Virus record (IMG/VR): IMGVR_UViG_3300021255_001218
Span: 1 to 64,000 of that record
From: a virus
Lineage: Duplodnaviria > Caudoviricetes
DNA length: 64,000 nucleotides
Direction: 5' to 3' (one strand)
In this document: piece after piece, positions 2,535 to 62,818 of the stretch
How the letters are laid out: each line of letters starts with the position of its first letter
How positions within the stretch are numbered: the first letter of the stretch is position 1
Translations under genes and position numbers: made by a program
Notes under the pieces: generated by a model
Told to the model about the DNA's origin: nothing
The model's input: the letters and a program-made list of their open reading frames with translations, nothing else
Database searches by the model: none

Positions 2535-3791
2535 TTAATATTGTCTATGACTAGCAGTGAGATTATTTCTTTCTTCTTTATTCCAATACTCAAAAAAGCT
2601 AGCAGCTCTTTTATCATCGGAATTATTCTCGAATCTATACTTATATTTCTCATCACTCTTATATCCAGGAGGATTTACATAATCCCTATGTCTCTGGATT
2701 TCTATCTGATCCATTACTATATCTATATTGGATTTATCTTGTGTATAAAATCCAGGAGCACCATATATCTTATGGTCTATATGCTTAGAACTCTCCTCCT
2801 CTTCTTGTTTAGTTACAATCTCAGATTCAGGATGAGTATTATGTATAGATCTATGTACTACATCGAAAGACTCTCTGTGTAAACAGTCAGTACAAAATGC
2901 TATTTCATCAAACTCTATTTGAGGTCCTTCTTGCATTATAAATGTACTATCGGCTATATCATCATAGTTCCCTATCTTTAATCCACTAAAAGTGTAATCA
3001 AAATTTCCTGTATAATATTGATCATAATATAACACTCCATCTATAAAGATTCTTAATCTATTATCTGTATCCATACACATCATGAAGTTTATAAAATAAT
3101 CTCCACTATATGTATCGTAATCGTACAGTATATCAAACTCTAATTGATAGTATCTGAAATGTATAACTCTCTTTAGTTTAGTATTATTACTAGACGGTTT
3201 CCAGAATAATTTAATCTCACCATTTTTCCACCATACACCATAGATTTGTTTATCATACTTCAATGCTTCTATAAGATAATGCCTTTCTATCTTATAGAAG
3301 AAAGAGAATGTAAACATCTTGTTTTCAGATACATCTATATCTCTCTTAGAATAGATATAAGTATAAGGATATTTAAACTTTAAGCTTCTATATCCTAATT
3401 TAGCAAGATTAGTTATAGCCGATGGGTTAGTAGTATCAAATACAGTAGAGTATGGAGAATAACCATAAGTATCATTATTGTTTACAAATCCCCAAGGATT
3501 ATCTATCCTTTCTATATCATTAAAGCAATGGTTAGCATCCCATTCTTTAAAATAGAGTGTAGATACAAAGTCTCTAGCTAATATATCTTTACTAGGGTCT
3601 ATAGAAGGATCTACACTCTTATTACTATTCCCCCAAGTAGCAGGATTTTCTTTACTATTCAAATCATATCCAGTATCACTATTAGAGTTATAATTAGTTG
3701 ATATAGGAATAGCGTTTTTAACATTAGTATTCATTGCACTTCCACTAGGATATGGTTGTGGAGATTCATAACGTAAAGTAGGTGTAGGCAT
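2535..3791 (-). CDS. virion structural protein with LamG/concanavalin-like domain
   Basis: FTFSFFYK...RLRIFIDG...FDEIAF pattern typical of LamG-like folds; last gene of the minus-strand structural run. Confidence 0.5.
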   Translation of the reverse strand: MPTPTLRYESPQPYPSGSAMNTNVKNAIPISTNYNSNSDTGYDLNSKENPATWGNSNKSVDPSIDPSKDILARDFVSTLYFKEWDANHCFNDIERIDNPWGFVNNNDTYGYSPYSTVFDTTNPSAITNLAKLGYRSLKFKYPYTYIYSKRDIDVSENKMFTFSFFYKIERHYLIEALKYDKQIYGVWWKNGEIKLFWKPSSNNTKLKRVIHFRYYQLEFDILYDYDTYSGDYFINFMMCMDTDNRLRIFIDGVLYYDQYYTGNFDYTFSGLKIGNYDDIADSTFIMQEGPQIEFDEIAFCTDCLHRESFDVVHRSIHNTHPESEIVTKQEEEESSKHIDHKIYGAPGFYTQDKSNIDIVMDQIEIQRHRDYVNPPGYKSDEKYKYRFENNSDDKRAASFFEYWNKEERNNLTASHRQY

Positions 3792-29478: not shown

Positions 29479-30045
29479 ATGAAAATGAAAGTGATTGTTG
29501 TTGTAGACATGCAGAATGACTTTGTATCCTGGCAGGATGAAGCAGCTGGTAAACAATTAGTGAAAGATATAAGAGAATATCTTCTTAAAGAATTAGCAGC
29601 TGCTCCAGATACCCATGTAATCTTTACTATGGATACACATAATGAAGATACTTATGAGAAGTACTTTGAAAGTTCTATTTATCTTATCCATTGTATTAAT
29701 GGGTCTAAGGGTTGGAATATAGTAGAAGACCTAGCAGATATTGCATTAGATCCTAATACTTATCCTACAGTATCTACTGTAAGAAAAGATACTTATGGTA
29801 ATGGAGATTTGGTATGTAAACTTCTTGAAATACAAGAAGCTACTAAGAATCCTCCTAAAGAATTCGAAGTAGTTGGATTATGTACAGATATCTGTGTATT
29901 GGCTAATATGGTAGTACTGAATAGCAACTTCCCATTTAGCAAGATTTCTCTTATAGAGAATCTTACTCTTGGTTCTAATGAGAATAAGAAAAAATCGGCT
30001 ATTGATGTAATGAATAGCATGGGTTTTAATATTATTACTAAATAA
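29479..30045 (+). CDS. pncA: nicotinamidase/isochorismatase-family cysteine hydrolase
   Basis: VVDMQNDF, DTH, HC, K and GLCTDICV catalytic motifs. Confidence 0.85.
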   Translation: MKMKVIVVVDMQNDFVSWQDEAAGKQLVKDIREYLLKELAAAPDTHVIFTMDTHNEDTYEKYFESSIYLIHCINGSKGWNIVEDLADIALDPNTYPTVSTVRKDTYGNGDLVCKLLEIQEATKNPPKEFEVVGLCTDICVLANMVVLNSNFPFSKISLIENLTLGSNENKKKSAIDVMNSMGFNIITK

Positions 30046-30058
30046 AACAAATAGCACC

Positions 30059-30093
30059 GCTGGAGAGCTATTAAGCTCTCCAGCATTTTTTTT
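30059..30093 (+). terminator. intrinsic terminator
   Basis: GCTGGAGAGCT-atta-AGCTCTCCAGC followed by a T-run. Confidence 0.85.
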
Positions 30094-30557
30094 ATTTAAA
30101 ATTATATATAAGACTTAGGAAATATTGAGATACTAATTTAAGAGGTATAAACGATGTTCCAGAAGAATACACAACAATAGGAAAATTTAAAATGTTAAAG
30201 AAAGATGGAGAAACAAATCTATGCAAATGAATTCACGATGACAGAAACGCAGAAGAAAAGGAAATGAAAAATTAGGAGTGATATTAATGTTTGTCTTATA
30301 TATAATTTAATCTGGTTTAAATAGAATGATAATAGATTTTACTCTATTATCATTCTATTATAAAAAATTGTATAATAATATAAAATGAATAAGTCCAAGA
30401 GTAATATAGTACTATCTGTTTCGACAATACTATATTACTTGAGTGTGTATGAAACTGATTTTAGGAGAGGTTTAGCACCATTATATTAATGTTGAATTTT
30501 ATTATAACTTAAGTATAAGATCCGATAATATATTTTTTATTTAAAGGAGTTTATTAT

Positions 30558-32158: not shown

Positions 32159-32545
32159 ATGTTTAAGAAACTAAAAAGGTATATAAAAGACAAACTAGCT
32201 TATATTGATAATAAGTATTATCGGTTTAAGTATATCCATTTATGGAAGAAAGATTATCAGATGGATACTAAATACTATTCTGAGACTTTTAGAAATGTGG
32301 CTATAGACTTAGATAAGTTATTACAAAAAGAGTATAAAGCTAATAAGCCTAAAACTAACTTTACCTTATACTATGGATACTTTAGAAAAGGTAGAGATGA
32401 TGCTTTTAAATTTCTCGGATTTTTAAGATGGTTAGGATTCGAATTCACTATATATGAACCACCATATAGTGAAAGTACGATTATCCTAACTATTACTATT
32501 GATAAGCCTTTATTAGATAAACTGGCTGAGGATACAATAGAATAA
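32159..32545 (+). CDS. hypothetical protein
   Basis: ORF in operon, followed by hairpin 32552..32579. Confidence 0.55.
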   Translation: MFKKLKRYIKDKLAYIDNKYYRFKYIHLWKKDYQMDTKYYSETFRNVAIDLDKLLQKEYKANKPKTNFTLYYGYFRKGRDDAFKFLGFLRWLGFEFTIYEPPYSESTIILTITIDKPLLDKLAEDTIE

Positions 32546-32664
32546 AATGCGTAGAGAGGGGAATTTAATCCCCTCTCTATTAACATGCCTTTTAGTTATA
32601 TACTATAATATTGATAATATACATTTATATGTATAAAGTAATTGTATAATGGAGGAGAAGTAAA

Positions 32665-33681
32665 ATGAAGTATTATGACAAGAATGATTTGAAAGTTATC
32701 AACGAAACCAAAAAGAAGTATTTACCAGAAAGATTGGTAAAATGCGATGATAATATAACTATTGCACCAGACGTATGTATCTTAAATAAGATATTTACTG
32801 AATGGAATGAGGAAACCGAATTACCTATTGAATATTTATATATCTATAAAGCTTTGTATCCAAATTCTTATGCAATCGAAATTAAATTAAAGGGTGAAAA
32901 ACCAACTAGTAGTCCTTGCTGCTATTCAAATGATGAATTTTTTGTGCCAATAGTATCAACTTTATTTAATTATAATAAAACCCTTAGTAGTAAATTTAAT
33001 AAAGCACTTGAAGATTATTTCTCATATACTAATGGTTATATGTATGAAGATAAAGAAGATTTTCAGTACCAAATTAGAGAAAAATATAGATCCAATAACC
33101 CATCTGTAGGAAATACGGATATTATTCCTATTGAGCATATTGAAGCGATTGAATTAGTTCGAGCATTTAGAAATCGCTATATTGATATTCAATATACATC
33201 ACAATATGATTTATATGCAATAATGCATAATGAAACGACTATATTAAATTATATAACAGATAAATTCTTAAATGTATATAATGATATTTTAGATAATAAT
33301 TGCTTACATAAAAGGTATTTTAATATCGAAGATATTGAAAGTAAATGGGAAGAAATGCCAAACGATACTGATCGCCCATATAATGGAATTTGGCATATAA
33401 ACTTAAATTATATTAAAAATCATAATACTTATATACCATTAATTTGCGATAGTCCAGCCAATATTGCTAATCAATTATTAAACTTTTCCATATTATATGG
33501 TACAAATATTATAGGTTTAGATTCTATGGATTCGGAATTGGAAAAGAGATTAGTAGTTAATATAATTAGTCGTATTTATCTTGTTAATAGTAAATACACT
33601 AAAAATGAGCAGTATCAAGGGATTACAGTGTGGGATAAAACAATGGAAGAAATGAAAAAGGAGAATAACAATAATGCCTAA
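32665..33681 (+). CDS. hypothetical protein
   Basis: GGAGG RBS; early motif at 32597..32613. Confidence 0.6.
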   Translation: MKYYDKNDLKVINETKKKYLPERLVKCDDNITIAPDVCILNKIFTEWNEETELPIEYLYIYKALYPNSYAIEIKLKGEKPTSSPCCYSNDEFFVPIVSTLFNYNKTLSSKFNKALEDYFSYTNGYMYEDKEDFQYQIREKYRSNNPSVGNTDIIPIEHIEAIELVRAFRNRYIDIQYTSQYDLYAIMHNETTILNYITDKFLNVYNDILDNNCLHKRYFNIEDIESKWEEMPNDTDRPYNGIWHINLNYIKNHNTYIPLICDSPANIANQLLNFSILYGTNIIGLDSMDSELEKRLVVNIISRIYLVNSKYTKNEQYQGITVWDKTMEEMKKENNNNA

Positions 33682-33978: not shown

Positions 33979-34010
33979 AGACTGCGGGATTAAATCCCGC
34001 AGTCTTTTTT
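33979..34010. terminator. intrinsic terminator, potentially bidirectional
   Basis: AGACTGCGGGAT-taa-ATCCCGCAGTCT followed by TTTTT. Confidence 0.85.
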
Positions 34011-34137
34011 CTTAAGGAGGAACTCAATACGCAAACAACAACACAAGGACTCACTCAACCCATTATATAGTATCATATAAATACTATATTAGAATCTATT
34101 TCAATTCTATTACTCGAATGTTAGGAGAGGATATATA

Positions 34138-34386
34138 TGGAATCTAATAAAATAATGAATGTTGTAGAAGGTATCTTAGTAGATACAGTAAGGAATGTAT
34201 TCAATGATAAGACTAATGATACATTAGAAAAAAAGATACTTAATGGTGCTATAGATGCGATACCTAACAATCTAGGATTGGATACTACAGAAATTAAAAA
34301 TTTAGCAAGGAACAAACTTAATAATAAAATAGTTGTAGCAGAATATACTCGTCCAGAAGATAAATCTAAGAATAGATTTAGATAAA
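34138..34386 (+). CDS. small hypothetical protein
   Basis: 82 aa; AGGAGAGG RBS (ATG read at 34138). Confidence 0.55.
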
Positions 34387-34413
34387 AATTAAAAAATAAT
34401 ATGCATGTAACAG

Positions 34414-35053
34414 TATGGTAGTGTGCAGAAGAGATGAATACATATTATTAGACTAATTTTATGATTTGCCTTTGTGCACAGCTTTAGATTGTTTTCTATA
34501 GCAATCTTAACTGATACTAACACTTTACCATAGTCCGAATATTCCTGATTTAAATTTTAGTGCAGTGACACTAGAGAATCGGTGGATTAATGATAATTCG
34601 GTCTAAAAAGACAAATACTAATACCTAGGTAGTAGTAAAAGTAATACGTGTAGGAGGAGAAACCTTGCGTATGATCGTCTCCAGGTTTTATCATTTCCTG
34701 TAGAATGCTTTATCTTCATAGCCGTTGTCTATAAATGATGGTAGTAGTTTCAGTATAGGTGGATTGATCTCAATTCTTTATGGGTCCCTGTGTTTCTATT
34801 ACGCCTTAAAGAACAGATCGCCGAAGTACCATCTGCCTAAGACTGTAAACGAGGTCATAACTAGGATTTGGTCATATTGGGTTATGAATGACGGTTTTGC
34901 CTATTTTACCTGATCAATAAAATAGGCTTTACTCGATATCAAATACACACTTAGTGTATTTAATATATTAAACTAAAGAAACTCTCCCTATAATAGGTTT
35001 GGTAATTTTTCCAGATTAGCCAAAAACTATTCCCCATATAGTTTCTTTAGTTT
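34414..35053 (+). ncRNA. candidate large structured ncRNA (ROOL/GOLLD-like context)
   Basis: no credible ORF; more than 10 nested and long-range helices; late promoter motif at the 5' end; directly upstream of two tRNAs. Confidence 0.65.
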
Positions 35054-35055
35054 TT

Positions 35056-35141
35056 ACCGGACTGGCGGAATTGGCAGACGCAAGGGACTTAAAATCCCTG
35101 GGCTTTTGGCTGTACGGGTTCAAGTCCCGTGTCCGGTACCA
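35056..35141 (+). tRNA. trnL: tRNA-Leu (anticodon TAA)
   Basis: ACCGGAC/GTCCGGT acceptor, AGGGA-CTTAAAA-TCCCT anticodon arm, long variable arm, TTCAAGT loop, encoded CCA. Confidence 0.95.
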
Positions 35142-35143
35142 GT

Positions 35144-35220
35144 GGACCCTTAGCTCAGTTGGTTAGAGCATCCGGCTCATAACCGGACGGTCCTCAGTTC
35201 AAGTCTGAGAGGGTCCACCA
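35144..35220 (+). tRNA. trnI: tRNA with CAT anticodon, most likely Ile2 (lysidine, reads AUA)
   Basis: GGACCCT/AGGGTCC acceptor, TCCGG-CTCATAA-CCGGA anticodon arm, CCA; resembles Firmicute tRNA-Ile2 and lacks initiator features. Confidence 0.9.
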
Positions 35221-35262
35221 ATTTTGCTTTATCTTATTCACCATATATAAAGATAAAACTCA

Positions 35263-35292
35263 GAGCGGGCTTATCATAGCCCGCTCAGGTTT
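35263..35292 (+). terminator. terminator after the tRNAs
   Basis: GAGCGGGCT-tatcat-AGCCCGCTC then aggTTTT. Confidence 0.7.
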
Positions 35293-35321
35293 TATCTAAA
35301 ATTTTTAGGAGGGTATAAATA

Positions 35322-35822
35322 ATGTTCGAATTTGTAAGTAAAGAGACTTGGCTGAAAACAGATGTTGGATTTAGCACTACTGAGGATAATTACCCTGGTA
35401 ATGATAAAGATAAGTTTACTCCTGTAAGATCTACTCCTGGTTCTGCAGGATATGATATCCGTGCTCCATTTTCTTTTAAAATATTTCCTAATGAAAGAGT
35501 TATTCTTCCTACTGGATTAAAATGGAATCCTAAAACTTGTGAAGCATATCCAAATTTTGGTGTCTTACAGTTGTATCCTAGATCTTCTCTTGGATTTAAA
35601 TATGGTTTCACTCTGCTTAATACAGTTGGTATTATAGATGCAGATTACTATAATAATCCTGTTAATGAGGGACACATTATGATAGGATTTACTGTAAATA
35701 AAGAAATGAATATTGAAATGGGAGATAAGATTTGCCAAGGTATAATTCTTCCTATTATCTTAGATGATGAAATAGTACCTACAGTAAAGAGAGAAGGTGG
35801 AATTGGTTCCACAGGAAAATAA
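35322..35822 (+). CDS. dut: trimeric dUTPase
   Basis: all five motifs present: SAGYD, PRSSLG, GIIDADY, ICQGI, REGGIGSTG. Confidence 0.92.
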   Translation: MFEFVSKETWLKTDVGFSTTEDNYPGNDKDKFTPVRSTPGSAGYDIRAPFSFKIFPNERVILPTGLKWNPKTCEAYPNFGVLQLYPRSSLGFKYGFTLLNTVGIIDADYYNNPVNEGHIMIGFTVNKEMNIEMGDKICQGIILPIILDDEIVPTVKREGGIGSTGK

Positions 35823-35893: not shown

Positions 35894-36115
35894 ATGAATA
35901 ACAATAATGTAGAGGGAAAAACCTATGGGATTATTATTTACGTACTAGTATTTATCTTAGGAGTAATGATAGGAGTAGGTTCATATTACATAGTAAAAGC
36001 TTTTGTAAAATCGGGGATAGATGATAGAAAAGCTTTTGATAAAGCTAGATCAAGTATTACTACTACTTATCAATATGCTGATAATAGTATTAACAATAGA
36101 ATAAAATTTTTGTAA
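35894..36115 (+). CDS. small single-pass membrane protein
   Basis: one hydrophobic helix. Confidence 0.55.
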   Translation: MNNNNVEGKTYGIIIYVLVFILGVMIGVGSYYIVKAFVKSGIDDRKAFDKARSSITTTYQYADNSINNRIKFL

Positions 36116-36132
36116 ATAAAGGAGTTTTTATA

Positions 36133-36303
36133 ATGACTAAAAGTGAAGCACTACTTAATTTGAAACAGTTGTTTACGAATCCTGTAAATAGCTCTATCAA
36201 ACTAAAAAAAATAAAATCTTTATATATGAAGGTTAAGGCACTTAATATTCCAGATAATGCTGAAGTTCCTAACCAGATTATGATGGAATATCGTAATTTA
36301 TAA
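36133..36303 (+). CDS. 56-aa hypothetical protein (not in ORF track)
   Basis: AAGGAG RBS; MTKSEALLNLKQLF...EYRNL*; followed by a terminator. Confidence 0.5.
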   Translation: MTKSEALLNLKQLFTNPVNSSIKLKKIKSLYMKVKALNIPDNAEVPNQIMMEYRNL

Positions 36304-36309
36304 AAAATA

Positions 36310-36331
36310 GGGGCAGCTTAATTGCTGCCCC
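36310..36331. terminator. bidirectional terminator
   Basis: GGGGCAGC-ttaatt-GCTGCCCC with T-rich runs on both strands. Confidence 0.85.
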
Positions 36332-36360
36332 TTATTATTTTTTTTCTAGTAATACTAACC

Positions 36361-36426
36361 TTAGCCAAATATGGCTTCGATTAGTATTACTAAAATCTCT
36401 GTGTCATCGGCTGGACGGGGACGCAT
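36361..36426 (-). CDS. 21-aa peptide MRPRPADDTEILVILIEAIFG (not in ORF track)
   Basis: AAGGAGGTGA RBS; TAATG coupling to the upstream ORF. Confidence 0.4.
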   Translation of the reverse strand: MRPRPADDTEILVILIEAIFG

Positions 36427-36596
36427 TAGAATTCACCTCCTTCTTCGTCGACGACACTGCGATTGTATCTAGAATCCTCCAGTGCCCAGTCTAATTGGGA
36501 CTGATCATATACCGACATGCCATAATCGCTATCATTGTCACAGTCACCGTCATAATAGAGTTCAATTTGATCTTCAAAATCCATTACATCATACAT
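36426..36596 (-). CDS. 56-aa highly acidic protein (not in ORF track)
   Basis: MYDVMDFEDQIELYYDGDCDNDSDYG...DEEGGEF; 18 D/E versus 2 R; AAGGAGG RBS; early motif at 36668..36684. Confidence 0.7.
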   Translation of the reverse strand: MYDVMDFEDQIELYYDGDCDNDSDYGMSVYDQSQLDWALEDSRYNRSVVDEEGGEF

Positions 36597-60553: not shown

Positions 60554-62818
60554 GTGATTTTAGTGTTAGAAAATCTGGCAGGATACTATGCTTATGCTGA
60601 ACTCGTTAAAACTGGTAAAGTATATATACGAGCAGACCAGATAGATCGAACTAATTGGTTAGATCATTATAATGGAGTATTAAATATTTTAAGAGATGGC
60701 ATAGAGACAGATTATGTACAACACCTTTTCGTTACGTTAGATTTTGGTACAGGAGATCCAATAGATGTAGTAGATATCTCACTTAATACTTATTATTTTA
60801 ATCTTATTATGTGGTATCATATAATAGCATTAGATGATGAGAGAATTCAGCCTAAGCATTTAATCATCTCTGATAATATTACTAAGAAGACTATAAAGAA
60901 GTTCATTGATGATTACTTTATTACTCCTAGAAAGACTAAGTATTCTAATAGAATCCTTAATAATGTAATCTCTGATGCTATCTATAGATTTGTAGATATA
61001 GATATCTTCTCCTTATATCTTGCCAATACACTTAATCTCGAAGATACGATAGAGCTAATGAATGCATCTCCAGAATATGACCAGATTATCCATGTAGACT
61101 TATCTAATGAGCCTTTGGATAATATGAAGAATAAAGGTATGGAATACGTTAAGAAAGCTAAAGAGATTATAGCAAATGCTGAAGCTATAATGGGTCATGA
61201 GCATTGCTTACGTAATCCTTTTGCTGCATCTGATGGTATTAATGATAAGCAATACAAAGATAACTCTATTAATATTGGTACTAAGCCTGATGGCCAAGGT
61301 AGTATTTATCATGAAAGGATTAACACTAGTTATATCACTGGTGGGTTGAAGAATATATTGTACTATTATATTGATTCTGCATCTGCTCGTGTAGCACAGA
61401 TTATCTCCAAAGAAAATGTAGGTGACTCTGGAGAATTTGCTCGTATTGTAGGATTAAATAATGAAAATATGTTTCTTCATAGAGACCCACATTATGATTG
61501 TGGCACTAATAACTATTTACATCAATTCATTCCTAATAAAGATATACTGAATATTCTCGTTGGTAGATATTATCGTTTAGATAGAATGAGTCCATTGAGA
61601 GAGATTACTGAGAATGATACTTGGTTAATTGGTAAAACCATATTATTACGATCTCCAATATTTTGTAACTCCCATGCACATGGTCATGGTGTTTGTTATA
61701 AGTGTTATGGTAAACTTGCATATACGAATAATGATATTAATATTGGTCGTATTGCATCAGAACTTATTACAGCTCAGCACACTCAGAAAAAGTTGTCTGC
61801 TAAACATGTATTAGAGCCTAAAGTAAAGACCATTATTTGGGATGATATCTTTAAGAATATCTTTGATATTGATATCAACTCAGTTATTATCCGTAAAGAC
61901 TTAAATTTCTCTGGTCTTAAAGGTTGGACTATTAACTTCAATTTTGATAATATCGAATTGGAGAATGATGATGACTTTTATTCCAGAAAAGGATTTAATA
62001 GTAGTAATGGTATCGTAGATGAGCCTATGTATAATGAATACCTTACTGAGTTTGATGTAACTGATAATGAGGGTAATACTGTAACCATTTCGGCTACTGT
62101 AGAGGATGATGATAATAATAGAAAACCTGTAAAACTTTATCTTACTACAGCATTTAGAGAAGCATTCTCTAATAGTGTAGATATTGATGAAGATAGTGAT
62201 ATGGTATCTATTAGACTTCTTGATTTTGTTGATAAGCCTATCTTTAAAGTTAAGATGGAAAATAATGACCTTGGTAAAGCTTTGGAAGAGTTTGAAGCTC
62301 TTATTGATAATAAAGCTATTACTAAGTCATTTAATGCTAGTGAACTTATCTATAGACTGCAGAATAATACCATTAAAGGTGGTATAGATTCTATGTCTAT
62401 CCATCTCGAAGTACTGATTTCAAATCAGATTTGCTCTATACATGATAGATTATCTAAACCTAACTGGTTAAATATTGATGAACCCTATGAGATTCTTACT
62501 CTTAATGAAGCATTGAGTGATAATCCATCTATTATTGTAAGTAGTATGTATAGAAGACTTAGTAGGTCTCTTAACTATCCTCTTGCATTTAAGAAATATG
62601 GTTCATCTGTATTTGATCCATTCTTTGTAAGAAAACCTGTTAAGTTTATGAAGGTTGATCATGAAATACTCGATATTCCTAATCAGTATAGGAATGCTCC
62701 TGGAGAATCTCCAGTAATGTATGACCATGATTATAAGAATAAAGATAGAGCACCTAGAGATCTTAAGAAGTTTATAGAACCGTTTAATACTAAGGAACCT
62801 ACTGGATTGGATGATTAA
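60554..62818 (+). CDS. phage multisubunit RNA polymerase beta-prime subunit, C-terminal part (probably non-virion RNAP)
   Basis: bridge helix ARVAQIISKENVGDSGEFAR, DCGT, RSPIFC...CYKCYG Zn site, trigger loop TQKKLSAKH; early motif at 60406..60422. Confidence 0.85.
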   Translation: MILVLENLAGYYAYAELVKTGKVYIRADQIDRTNWLDHYNGVLNILRDGIETDYVQHLFVTLDFGTGDPIDVVDISLNTYYFNLIMWYHIIALDDERIQPKHLIISDNITKKTIKKFIDDYFITPRKTKYSNRILNNVISDAIYRFVDIDIFSLYLANTLNLEDTIELMNASPEYDQIIHVDLSNEPLDNMKNKGMEYVKKAKEIIANAEAIMGHEHCLRNPFAASDGINDKQYKDNSINIGTKPDGQGSIYHERINTSYITGGLKNILYYYIDSASARVAQIISKENVGDSGEFARIVGLNNENMFLHRDPHYDCGTNNYLHQFIPNKDILNILVGRYYRLDRMSPLREITENDTWLIGKTILLRSPIFCNSHAHGHGVCYKCYGKLAYTNNDINIGRIASELITAQHTQKKLSAKHVLEPKVKTIIWDDIFKNIFDIDINSVIIRKDLNFSGLKGWTINFNFDNIELENDDDFYSRKGFNSSNGIVDEPMYNEYLTEFDVTDNEGNTVTISATVEDDDNNRKPVKLYLTTAFREAFSNSVDIDEDSDMVSIRLLDFVDKPIFKVKMENNDLGKALEEFEALIDNKAITKSFNASELIYRLQNNTIKGGIDSMSIHLEVLISNQICSIHDRLSKPNWLNIDEPYEILTLNEALSDNPSIIVSSMYRRLSRSLNYPLAFKKYGSSVFDPFFVRKPVKFMKVDHEILDIPNQYRNAPGESPVMYDHDYKNKDRAPRDLKKFIEPFNTKEPTGLDD

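Follow-up and report, generated by a model that had tools for sequence, protein, structure and literature searches.

What is encoded in the 670 bases without a usable frame that separate the stop codon of a small phage gene from a tRNA-Leu gene? The DNA analyzed here, referred to as the window, covers the initial 64 kb of an IMG/VR virus record of 94,410 bp that is estimated to be 35% complete and has a G+C content (GC) of about 27%. Among the proteins encoded on the record are a phiKZ-type split RNA polymerase beta subunit, helicases resembling DnaB and Dda, pieces of a DNA polymerase and a GyrB-like protein, which together mark the record as a fragment of a jumbo phage. Comparative sequence evidence establishes that the 670 bases contain a selected, plus-strand, structure-conserving non-coding element that is attached to two tRNA genes and restricted to one phage clade. 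Going further, we think it probable that the plus strand from 34404 to 35055 encodes a structured non-coding RNA, about 650 nucleotides (nt) long, that lies outside all catalogued families. Around it, the locus has the following features:

33979-34005, plus strand: terminator-like hairpin (12-bp stem, 7 GC pairs, then TTTTTTCTT) that closes the upstream gene
34137-34385, plus strand: orf82, encoding an 82-amino-acid (aa) protein of no known family, directly upstream of the RNA in every copy
35056-35141, plus strand: tRNA-Leu, anticodon UAA (ARAGORN and the Rfam tRNA model, 54.3 bits)
35144-35220, plus strand: tRNA, anticodon CAU, called Met (ARAGORN and the Rfam tRNA model, 70.9 bits)
35263-35286, plus strand: terminator-like hairpin (9-bp stem, 7 GC pairs, then AGGTTTTATC) that would close the unit; kept in the homologous locus L002

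Between 34386 and 35055, all six frames are closed under genetic code 11, each by 12-26 stops of mixed type, and because the stop types are mixed in every frame, no single stop-codon reassignment opens one. An earlier reading of the window, made from the letters alone (the sequence-only reading), had described about 650 nt without a credible open reading frame (ORF), a description that is upheld under code 11 and under any single reassignment. Together with the tRNAs, the region (34386-35321) exceeds in length every other part of the window that lacks an ORF of at least 70 aa. The GC of the gene-free stretch is 0.35-0.38, compared with 0.25-0.28 in the flanks. A search of the rest of the window for repeated copies of the RNA, or for copies resembling those of diversity-generating retroelements, found none.

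Homologous copies, coding tests and sequence constraint

Homologues of the element were reached through the neighbouring proteins, namely a 338-aa protein encoded two genes upstream, the dUTPase and orf82, and a 20-mer scan of metagenomes gave two further loci. Direct searches with the RNA yielded no similar sequence among GenBank phages (blastn, distant mode), only the window's own record in IMG/VR (exact 19-24-mers), and no match in GTDB genomes (an exact 20-mer); single-protein IMG/VR searches with orf82 and with the dUTPase likewise gave no matches. Nine distinct full-length copies, all from metagenomes, and three partial ones (L003, L005 and L006) fall into about four lineages. Lineage A comprises the window, L013, L005 and L006; lineage B comprises L002, L003 and L114; lineage C comprises L007, L012, L120 and L121; and C', divergent in one rod, is represented by L017, which is identical to L117 and L118 and was counted with them as one copy. 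One copy sits on a contig of 323,660 bp. The order orf82, RNA, tRNA-Leu(UAA), tRNA(CAU), dUTPase is common to all copies (the succession of orf82 and RNA is the same in L002, L007, L017, L114, L120, L121 and others), and tRNA-Leu begins 1-3 nt past the RNA in every copy that reaches that far.

Might these copies descend from a decayed protein gene, or contain small functional ORFs such as one of 10 codons that stands behind a Shine-Dalgarno-like loop? The suggestion draws on an AGGAGG at 34653-58 with an AUG 12 nt later, on a 10-aa product that is near-identical in lineages A (MIVSRFYHFL) and C (MVVSRFYHFL), and on a 62-aa ORF that is open in both the window and L002. However, the 10-codon ORF is reduced to AUG-UAG in L017 and gives way to a different 22-aa frame in lineage B, so that it is not a conserved peptide, and the 62-aa ORF is absent from L007. 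A 35-aa antisense ORF of the window is missing in L002. Indels that are not multiples of three occur throughout: with the window as reference, they account for 10 of the 11 events relative to L002 and 18 of the 19 relative to L007. Protein coding, past or present, is in our judgement a highly improbable explanation of the region. The 10-codon ORF itself (34671-34703) starts 12 nt past the Shine-Dalgarno-like loop and spans hairpin H10, described below.

With an identity of 89% between the window and L002 over 9.8 kb, the region does not initially stand out in conservation from the DNA around it. For the comparison with L007, a neutral yardstick was taken from the third codon positions of five flanking genes, which are 63-79% identical between the two. 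Measured in this way, the three body domains of the element (domains 1, 2 and 3 below) are 90.6%, 94.4% and 87.2% identical, respectively, which indicates purifying selection on about 480 nt. In the same comparison, rates close to neutral are seen in the 3' hairpin region (76% identical), in the interior of the last hairpin (67-68%) and in a linker at 34504-34527.

Conserved pairing and the domains of the predicted RNA

A structure model was derived with RNAalifold from the full-length copies; it comprises 175 pairs in 21-22 helices, and its pairs were counted on the nine distinct sequences. Counted in this way, with a model derived from the same sequences and over few independent lineages, 99.0% of the cells are standard pairs, compared with 37-45% after the 3' partners have been shifted by 1-3 columns. 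Thirteen pairs show double changes that preserve pairing, as against 0-3 after such a shift, and none of 500 column shuffles reached this number. Pairing is also kept through one-sided variation in 29 more pairs, six pairs depart by mismatches only, and paired columns vary less than unpaired ones (17% versus 26%). The covariation among homologues that had been proposed as a check on the element is present, in nine copies and few lineages.

The pairing is strand-specific. There are 118 G-U cells among the pairs, and the same model is 98% paired on the plus strand and 86% paired on the minus strand, which argues for a plus-strand RNA rather than a DNA cruciform. An element acting as DNA could be a replication origin, a packaging site or a protein-binding array, its inverted repeats serving as DNA hairpins or operators. 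Such a role would suit the size of this non-coding region, its conservation and its many inverted repeats, in a jumbo phage with an unlocated origin, and the z-score of folding energy relative to shuffled sequence (z) is also low, -3.5, when the core is read on the minus strand. The G-U pairing, however, is what an RNA would require, GC is raised and not lowered, and the region contains no iterons or tandem repeats, just two weak two-copy direct repeats; a DNA-level function appears very improbable. The two direct repeats (34575-34599 and 34752-34776, 76% over 25 nt; 34628-34643 and 34740-34755, 81% over 16 nt) are not collinear and may reflect chance or an old internal duplication.

According to the model, the element is divided as follows:

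34404-34503, plus strand: domain 1, a long AU-rich hairpin in which H2 (34421-28/34472-79) is stacked on H3 (34432-50/34454-71), plus H4 (34481-88/34495-502)
34504-34527, plus strand: variable linker and insertion site, 67-79% identity
34528-34707, plus strand: domain 2, a three-part rod (H5-H7) followed by hairpins H8, H9 and H10
34531-40/34596-605, 34541-51/34576-87 and 34556-62/34569-75, plus strand: rod helices H5, H6 and H7, the last with loop CAGUGA
34616-24/34629-37, plus strand: hairpin H8, loop CUAG
34644-54/34663-72, plus strand: hairpin H9, with the invariant Shine-Dalgarno-like loop AGGAGAAA at 34655-62
34678-85/34697-704, plus strand: hairpin H10, loop UUUUAUCAUUU
34713-34891, plus strand: domain 3, a long irregular rod with H11 (34713-23/34880-91) as its closing helix and H12-H17 inside
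34747-64/34831-50, 34765-69/34816-20 and 34774-85/34803-13, plus strand: inner helices H15, H16 and H17 of domain 3, the last with a 17-nt apical loop
34892-34960, plus strand: domain 4, H19 (34899-908/34918-27) flanked by H18 (34892-94/34933-35), then H20 (34942-49/34953-60)
34971-35055, plus strand: terminal hairpin H21, stem 34971-82/35041-52 (14 bp in the window), ending in U5 and abutting tRNA-Leu

The changes that preserve pairing are distributed unevenly over these domains. In domain 1 (z -2.5 for 34417-34503), H2 has undergone four one-sided changes in its 3' strand, all still paired through G-U wobble, which is possible on the plus strand only. The linker that follows has received insertions of 21 nt in lineage B and of 31-33 nt in lineage C. 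Domain 2 (z -2.2) has eight pairs with compensatory double changes, two in H5, one in H6, two in H7 and three in H10; those of H5-H7 include a switch from U-A to C-G within lineage C (L121), and in the same rod L017 deletes both partners of one pair. H10 is extended by 5 nt in lineage B, and no conserved ORF lies downstream of the Shine-Dalgarno-like loop of H9. Domain 3 has the highest GC in the element and, between the window and lineage B (L002), the highest conservation; its identities are 87-95%. In its closing helix H11, one pair is seen as G-U, A-U and G-C and another as U-A and U-G (the variants come from L017 and L114), and H14-H16 exhibit one-sided, wobble-consistent changes only, with one A.C break in L114. 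In domain 4 (z -5.0 for 34892-34963), compensatory double changes are found in four pairs of H19, beneath a constant loop, and in one pair of H18. That loop, CCUGAUCAA, is invariant, 9 nt long and contains the palindrome UGAUCA. The stem of H21 is invariant except for one A-U/G-U change, its interior (34983-35040) is fast-evolving with 15-17 gap columns, and the hairpin as a whole (34970-35054) has a z of -5.7.

The thirteen helices listed in the sequence-only reading are all complementary in the window, and ten of them are kept in the homologues, but three are not. In helix 34414-24/34520-32, the GUGU belongs to the hairpin 34421-28/34472-79, and G34417 is A in all other copies; helix 34486-91/34502-07 loses its 3' arm in two lineages, with 34481-88/34495-502 kept instead; and helix 34737-43/34827-33, broken in two lineages, is replaced by 34738-41/34855-58 and 34756-64/34831-39. 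To call the structure ornate was an overstatement: it is mostly a chain of hairpins and one long irregular rod, with no pseudoknot demonstrated. A scan for extra conserved covarying helices or pseudoknots returned only candidates of 4-6 bp that, with four lineages, are indistinguishable from chance. A GNRA tetraloop with an 11-nt receptor was considered by eye and rejected, as CCUAAG is the same in all copies but the UAUGG that would have to pair up with it reads UAUGA in lineage C.

Relation to known RNA families

Could the element belong to one of the large RNAs already described from phages? ROOL was first seen in cow rumen metagenomes (PMC5737381). Both ROOL and GOLLD are encoded close to tRNA islands of phages and prophages and assemble into nanocages through kissing loops and A-minor contacts, and an increase in GOLLD expression during lysis has been reported (bioRxiv 10.1101/2024.12.08.627333). 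The element has the same type of location, next to phage tRNA genes, and is of similar size, and the sequence-only reading had proposed that it is either a divergent ROOL/GOLLD relative or a new large RNA class. Across the 64 kb, cmscan with all 4227 Rfam families found the two tRNAs only at gathering score, and a permissive scan of 34000-35400 at E<=10 gave the tRNAs and noise, such as snoRNA-like matches at E>1. ROOL (RF03087, gathering score 99.1 bits) has no match at gathering score over the 64 kb and none at E<=10 in 34000-35400; on the 94-kb record its model gave 0 candidates, and since the control genomes gave none either, that search is weak alone. GOLLD (RF02032, gathering score 150 bits) has no match in either Rfam scan; six candidates were scored with its model on the 94-kb record, none at E<=10, and five control genomes gave weak matches.

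The architecture also differs. Like ROOL (~580 nt), the element is large, structured, encoded by a phage or prophage and placed where ROOL is often found, beside tRNA genes, but it consists of a chain of hairpins and one rod with no supported pseudoknot and is confined to one phage clade, whereas ROOL is found in several phyla. Like GOLLD, it is a large phage RNA near tRNAs in which a conserved part is joined to a variable part through a poorly conserved linker; unlike it, the element is shorter (GOLLD is often >800 nt) and has its fast-evolving part on the 3' side, where GOLLD has its conserved domain. Judged by the Rfam covariance models, the element falls outside both families: it shares their genomic habit and is not their homologue. 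The idea of a highly divergent ROOL or GOLLD member is close to refuted, and we give it almost no weight. What survives of the new RNA class is a weaker form, a non-coding, plus-strand, structure-conserving element under purifying selection in one clade, without the ornateness.

A parallel in genomic organization may be found in the tRNA cluster of phage T4, which contains stable RNAs (species 1 and 2, rnaC/rnaD) that are not tRNAs, are co-transcribed with the tRNAs and are released by tRNA-processing enzymes. The T4 RNAs are about 140 nt long, compared with about 650 nt here, and no sequence relation is expected.

ROOL and GOLLD are abundant and form striking assemblies, yet their function is still open, and each independent family with the same habit sharpens the question. 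The RNA proposed here offers a smaller and simpler specimen, in which covarying stems carry invariant loops, a small protein is inherited together with the RNA and two hyper-variable linkers occur naturally. With an uncultivated host and a distribution limited to one narrow metagenomic clade of jumbo phages, it is a lead and not an experiment-ready system.

Proposed transcription unit and fate of the RNA

On the plus strand, terminator-like sites are found before orf82 and after the second tRNA only, with none between. The simplest reading of this bracketing is a single transcript, orf82-RNA-tRNA-tRNA, of which the hairpin at 33979-34005 likely sets the upstream limit. Co-transcription of the RNA with the tRNAs is thus plausible from the arrangement of these sites. 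The sequence-only reading had also placed this transcript late in infection, from a late-type motif (AACA-N6-TA) at 34409; that part has no support, and neither has a promoter at this position. Tested as AACANTATNNTA, the motif occurs 3 times in 64 kb against 3.9 expected, and although it is conserved as sequence in the copies, the pattern is not enriched. As a promoter, AACANTATNNTA was rejected for this reason and because its occurrences are mostly inside genes. The word GTATAGTA, also mostly inside genes, occurs at chance-level frequency, and sigma-70-like sites do so as well (10 found, 10.1 expected).

How might an RNA be produced from such a unit? We propose that orf82, the RNA, tRNA-Leu(UAA) and tRNA(CAU) would be transcribed together between the two terminator-like hairpins, and that RNase P, cutting at 35055/35056 to form the 5' end of tRNA-Leu, would create the 3' end of the RNA. 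The terminal hairpin of 12-14 bp, with its U5, would cap this end and protect it against 3' exonucleases, and the 5' end would lie somewhere between 34386 and 34421. The released RNA would have a sequence-constrained 5' and central body of about 480 nt, made up of a long hairpin, a three-part rod, three invariant-loop hairpins and a 180-nt rod under a long-range helix. On its 3' side would stand three hairpins whose stems are kept by compensatory change, and there would be two fast-evolving linkers in all. Freed from the tRNA precursor, it would persist as a stable trans-acting RNA. The invariant single-stranded loops AGGAGAAA, CAGUGA, UUUUAUCAUUU and CCUGAUCAA, presented on covarying stems, could be its working surfaces, with a protein, the 30S subunit or a second copy of the RNA as possible ligands; the co-inherited 82-aa protein is a candidate partner.

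The main rival to an independent RNA is a cis-acting spacer. The region would then be the 3' untranslated region of orf82 together with a long 5' leader of the tRNA precursor. Its hairpins would do no more than direct processing, stabilize the transcript or attenuate it, as cleavage sites for RNase III or RNase E, as barriers to exonucleases or as weak terminators, and the RNA, once excised, would be broken down. No promoter or terminator lies between orf82 and the tRNAs, the strongest folding signal is located in the three simple hairpins beside the tRNAs, and the last of these abuts tRNA-Leu. The parts nearest the tRNAs, domain 4 at 76% and the terminal hairpin at 68% identity to L007, are near neutral, and relatives exist in which a tRNA lies directly upstream of the dUTPase with no such region. 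Nevertheless, about 480 nt have stayed 87-94% identical, compared with 63-79% at neutral positions, a constraint far beyond the needs of processing signals. Covarying stems also carry invariant loops, and the full length is kept in 9/9 distinct copies. On balance we consider the spacer unlikely, though it deserves to be taken seriously.

Several points nonetheless weigh against the reading of the region as an independent structured RNA. Folding energy, proposed earlier as a check against dinucleotide-shuffled controls, gave a divided result: the whole region has a z of -4.7 (20 shuffles), but this is carried mainly by the three plain 3' hairpins, while the core (34404-34969) has a z of -2.1 and the long-range domain (34711-34894) a z of -0.6, no better than shuffled sequence. 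In a scan of 12 kb, 300-nt segments within 34400-34999 have z values of only -0.6 to -1.75, and many nearby coding or terminator segments fall below -3. With the folding energy only half in favour, it is conservation and covariation that carry the case, and here too there are limits. The interior of domain 3 has zero double compensatory changes, and the copies all come from one clade, are at least 85% identical and represent about four lineages, so the covariation reflects few events and does not allow a proper statistical test. That 34404-35055 is one RNA rather than several is presumed, and the binding role is one that we infer from the invariant loops alone. Covariance models built from 34528-34707 (R1) and 34710-34892 (R2) found no credible match in the whole records of 40 IMG/VR jumbo phages, which are 35-56% identical to the window's phage in RNA polymerase beta and of which 21 are at least 90% complete.

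The 40 records were drawn from 214 RNA polymerase beta relatives found via a profile of distant homologues. The best R1 and R2 matches, at 19.7 and 15.6 bits, are false, lying inside ORFs of 403 and 243 aa. The search for homologues that had been advised in the sequence-only reading succeeded within one clade, where it produced the nine full-length copies, and not in the wider set of jumbo phages. Three complete relatives have no ORF-free gap in their dUTPase neighbourhoods, and L009, a more distant relative with a dUTPase 53% identical, has nothing similar beside it. The narrow distribution is common to the RNA and orf82: the protein has no Pfam or PHROG match, occurs in only 3 clusters among 5.8 billion proteins, all within this clade, and was not found in 24 related jumbo-phage records, while an ESM Atlas look-up returned uninformative scores (<=0.85). 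As far as these searches reach, the module of orf82 and RNA has thus either been acquired or invented recently within one narrow clade, or diverged past detection by models built from near-identical sequences.

The window's RNA polymerase beta-like subunit (60554-62818) has its 214 IMG/VR relatives (loci L020-L099) in many cases on records of 220-340 kb with terminal repeats. Outside the clade, even the closest of them reach no more than 55-56% identity, which places the phage on a sparsely sampled branch.

A bolder form of the independent-RNA reading would make this the third independently evolved large phage RNA that assembles with itself, a homo-oligomer formed through the UGAUCA and CUAG loops, with the Shine-Dalgarno-like loop capturing the 30S subunit or another partner resembling an anti-Shine-Dalgarno sequence and the 82-aa protein as cofactor. 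Both palindromic loops, UGAUCA (34910-15) and CUAG (34625-28), are invariant, and a UGAUCA within a 9-nt loop has a layout like that of the HIV-1 dimerisation loop. By our estimate, about 0.5 such loops would be expected by chance in ten loops, and the pair is a weak sign of oligomerisation; we put forward self-assembly as a conjecture with little chance of being correct.

Other observations concern the surroundings of the element. The tRNA(CAU) accompanies tRNA-Leu(UAA) in every copy and may be an initiator, an elongator or a tRNA-Ile2. If it is lysidine-modified, as a tRNA-Ile2 would be, both tRNAs would read A-ending codons, UUA and AUA, that are heavily used in an AT-rich phage. In a complete relative of 342 kb (L112, G007:C1:62000-71000), a tRNA-Arg(tct) at 3361-3435 is directly upstream of the dUTPase with no gene-free region, and from this the adjacency of tRNA and dUTPase seems older than the large RNA. 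A second ORF-free gap of the window, at 30087-30557, is 471 nt long with a GC of 0.23 and no ORF of at least 50 aa, and 300-nt segments at 29900-30349, which overlap it, have a folding z of about -4. The strongest values of the 12-kb scan, far beyond those of the RNA core, are -6.9 and -8.5 at 36050-36499, a region of small ORFs, and -6.5 at 32300-32599. The gene of the 338-aa protein (32665-33681) evolves much faster than its neighbours: its product has 65-75% aa identity between lineages that are about 89% identical in DNA overall, and nucleotide identity dips to 68-71% at 33000-33400.

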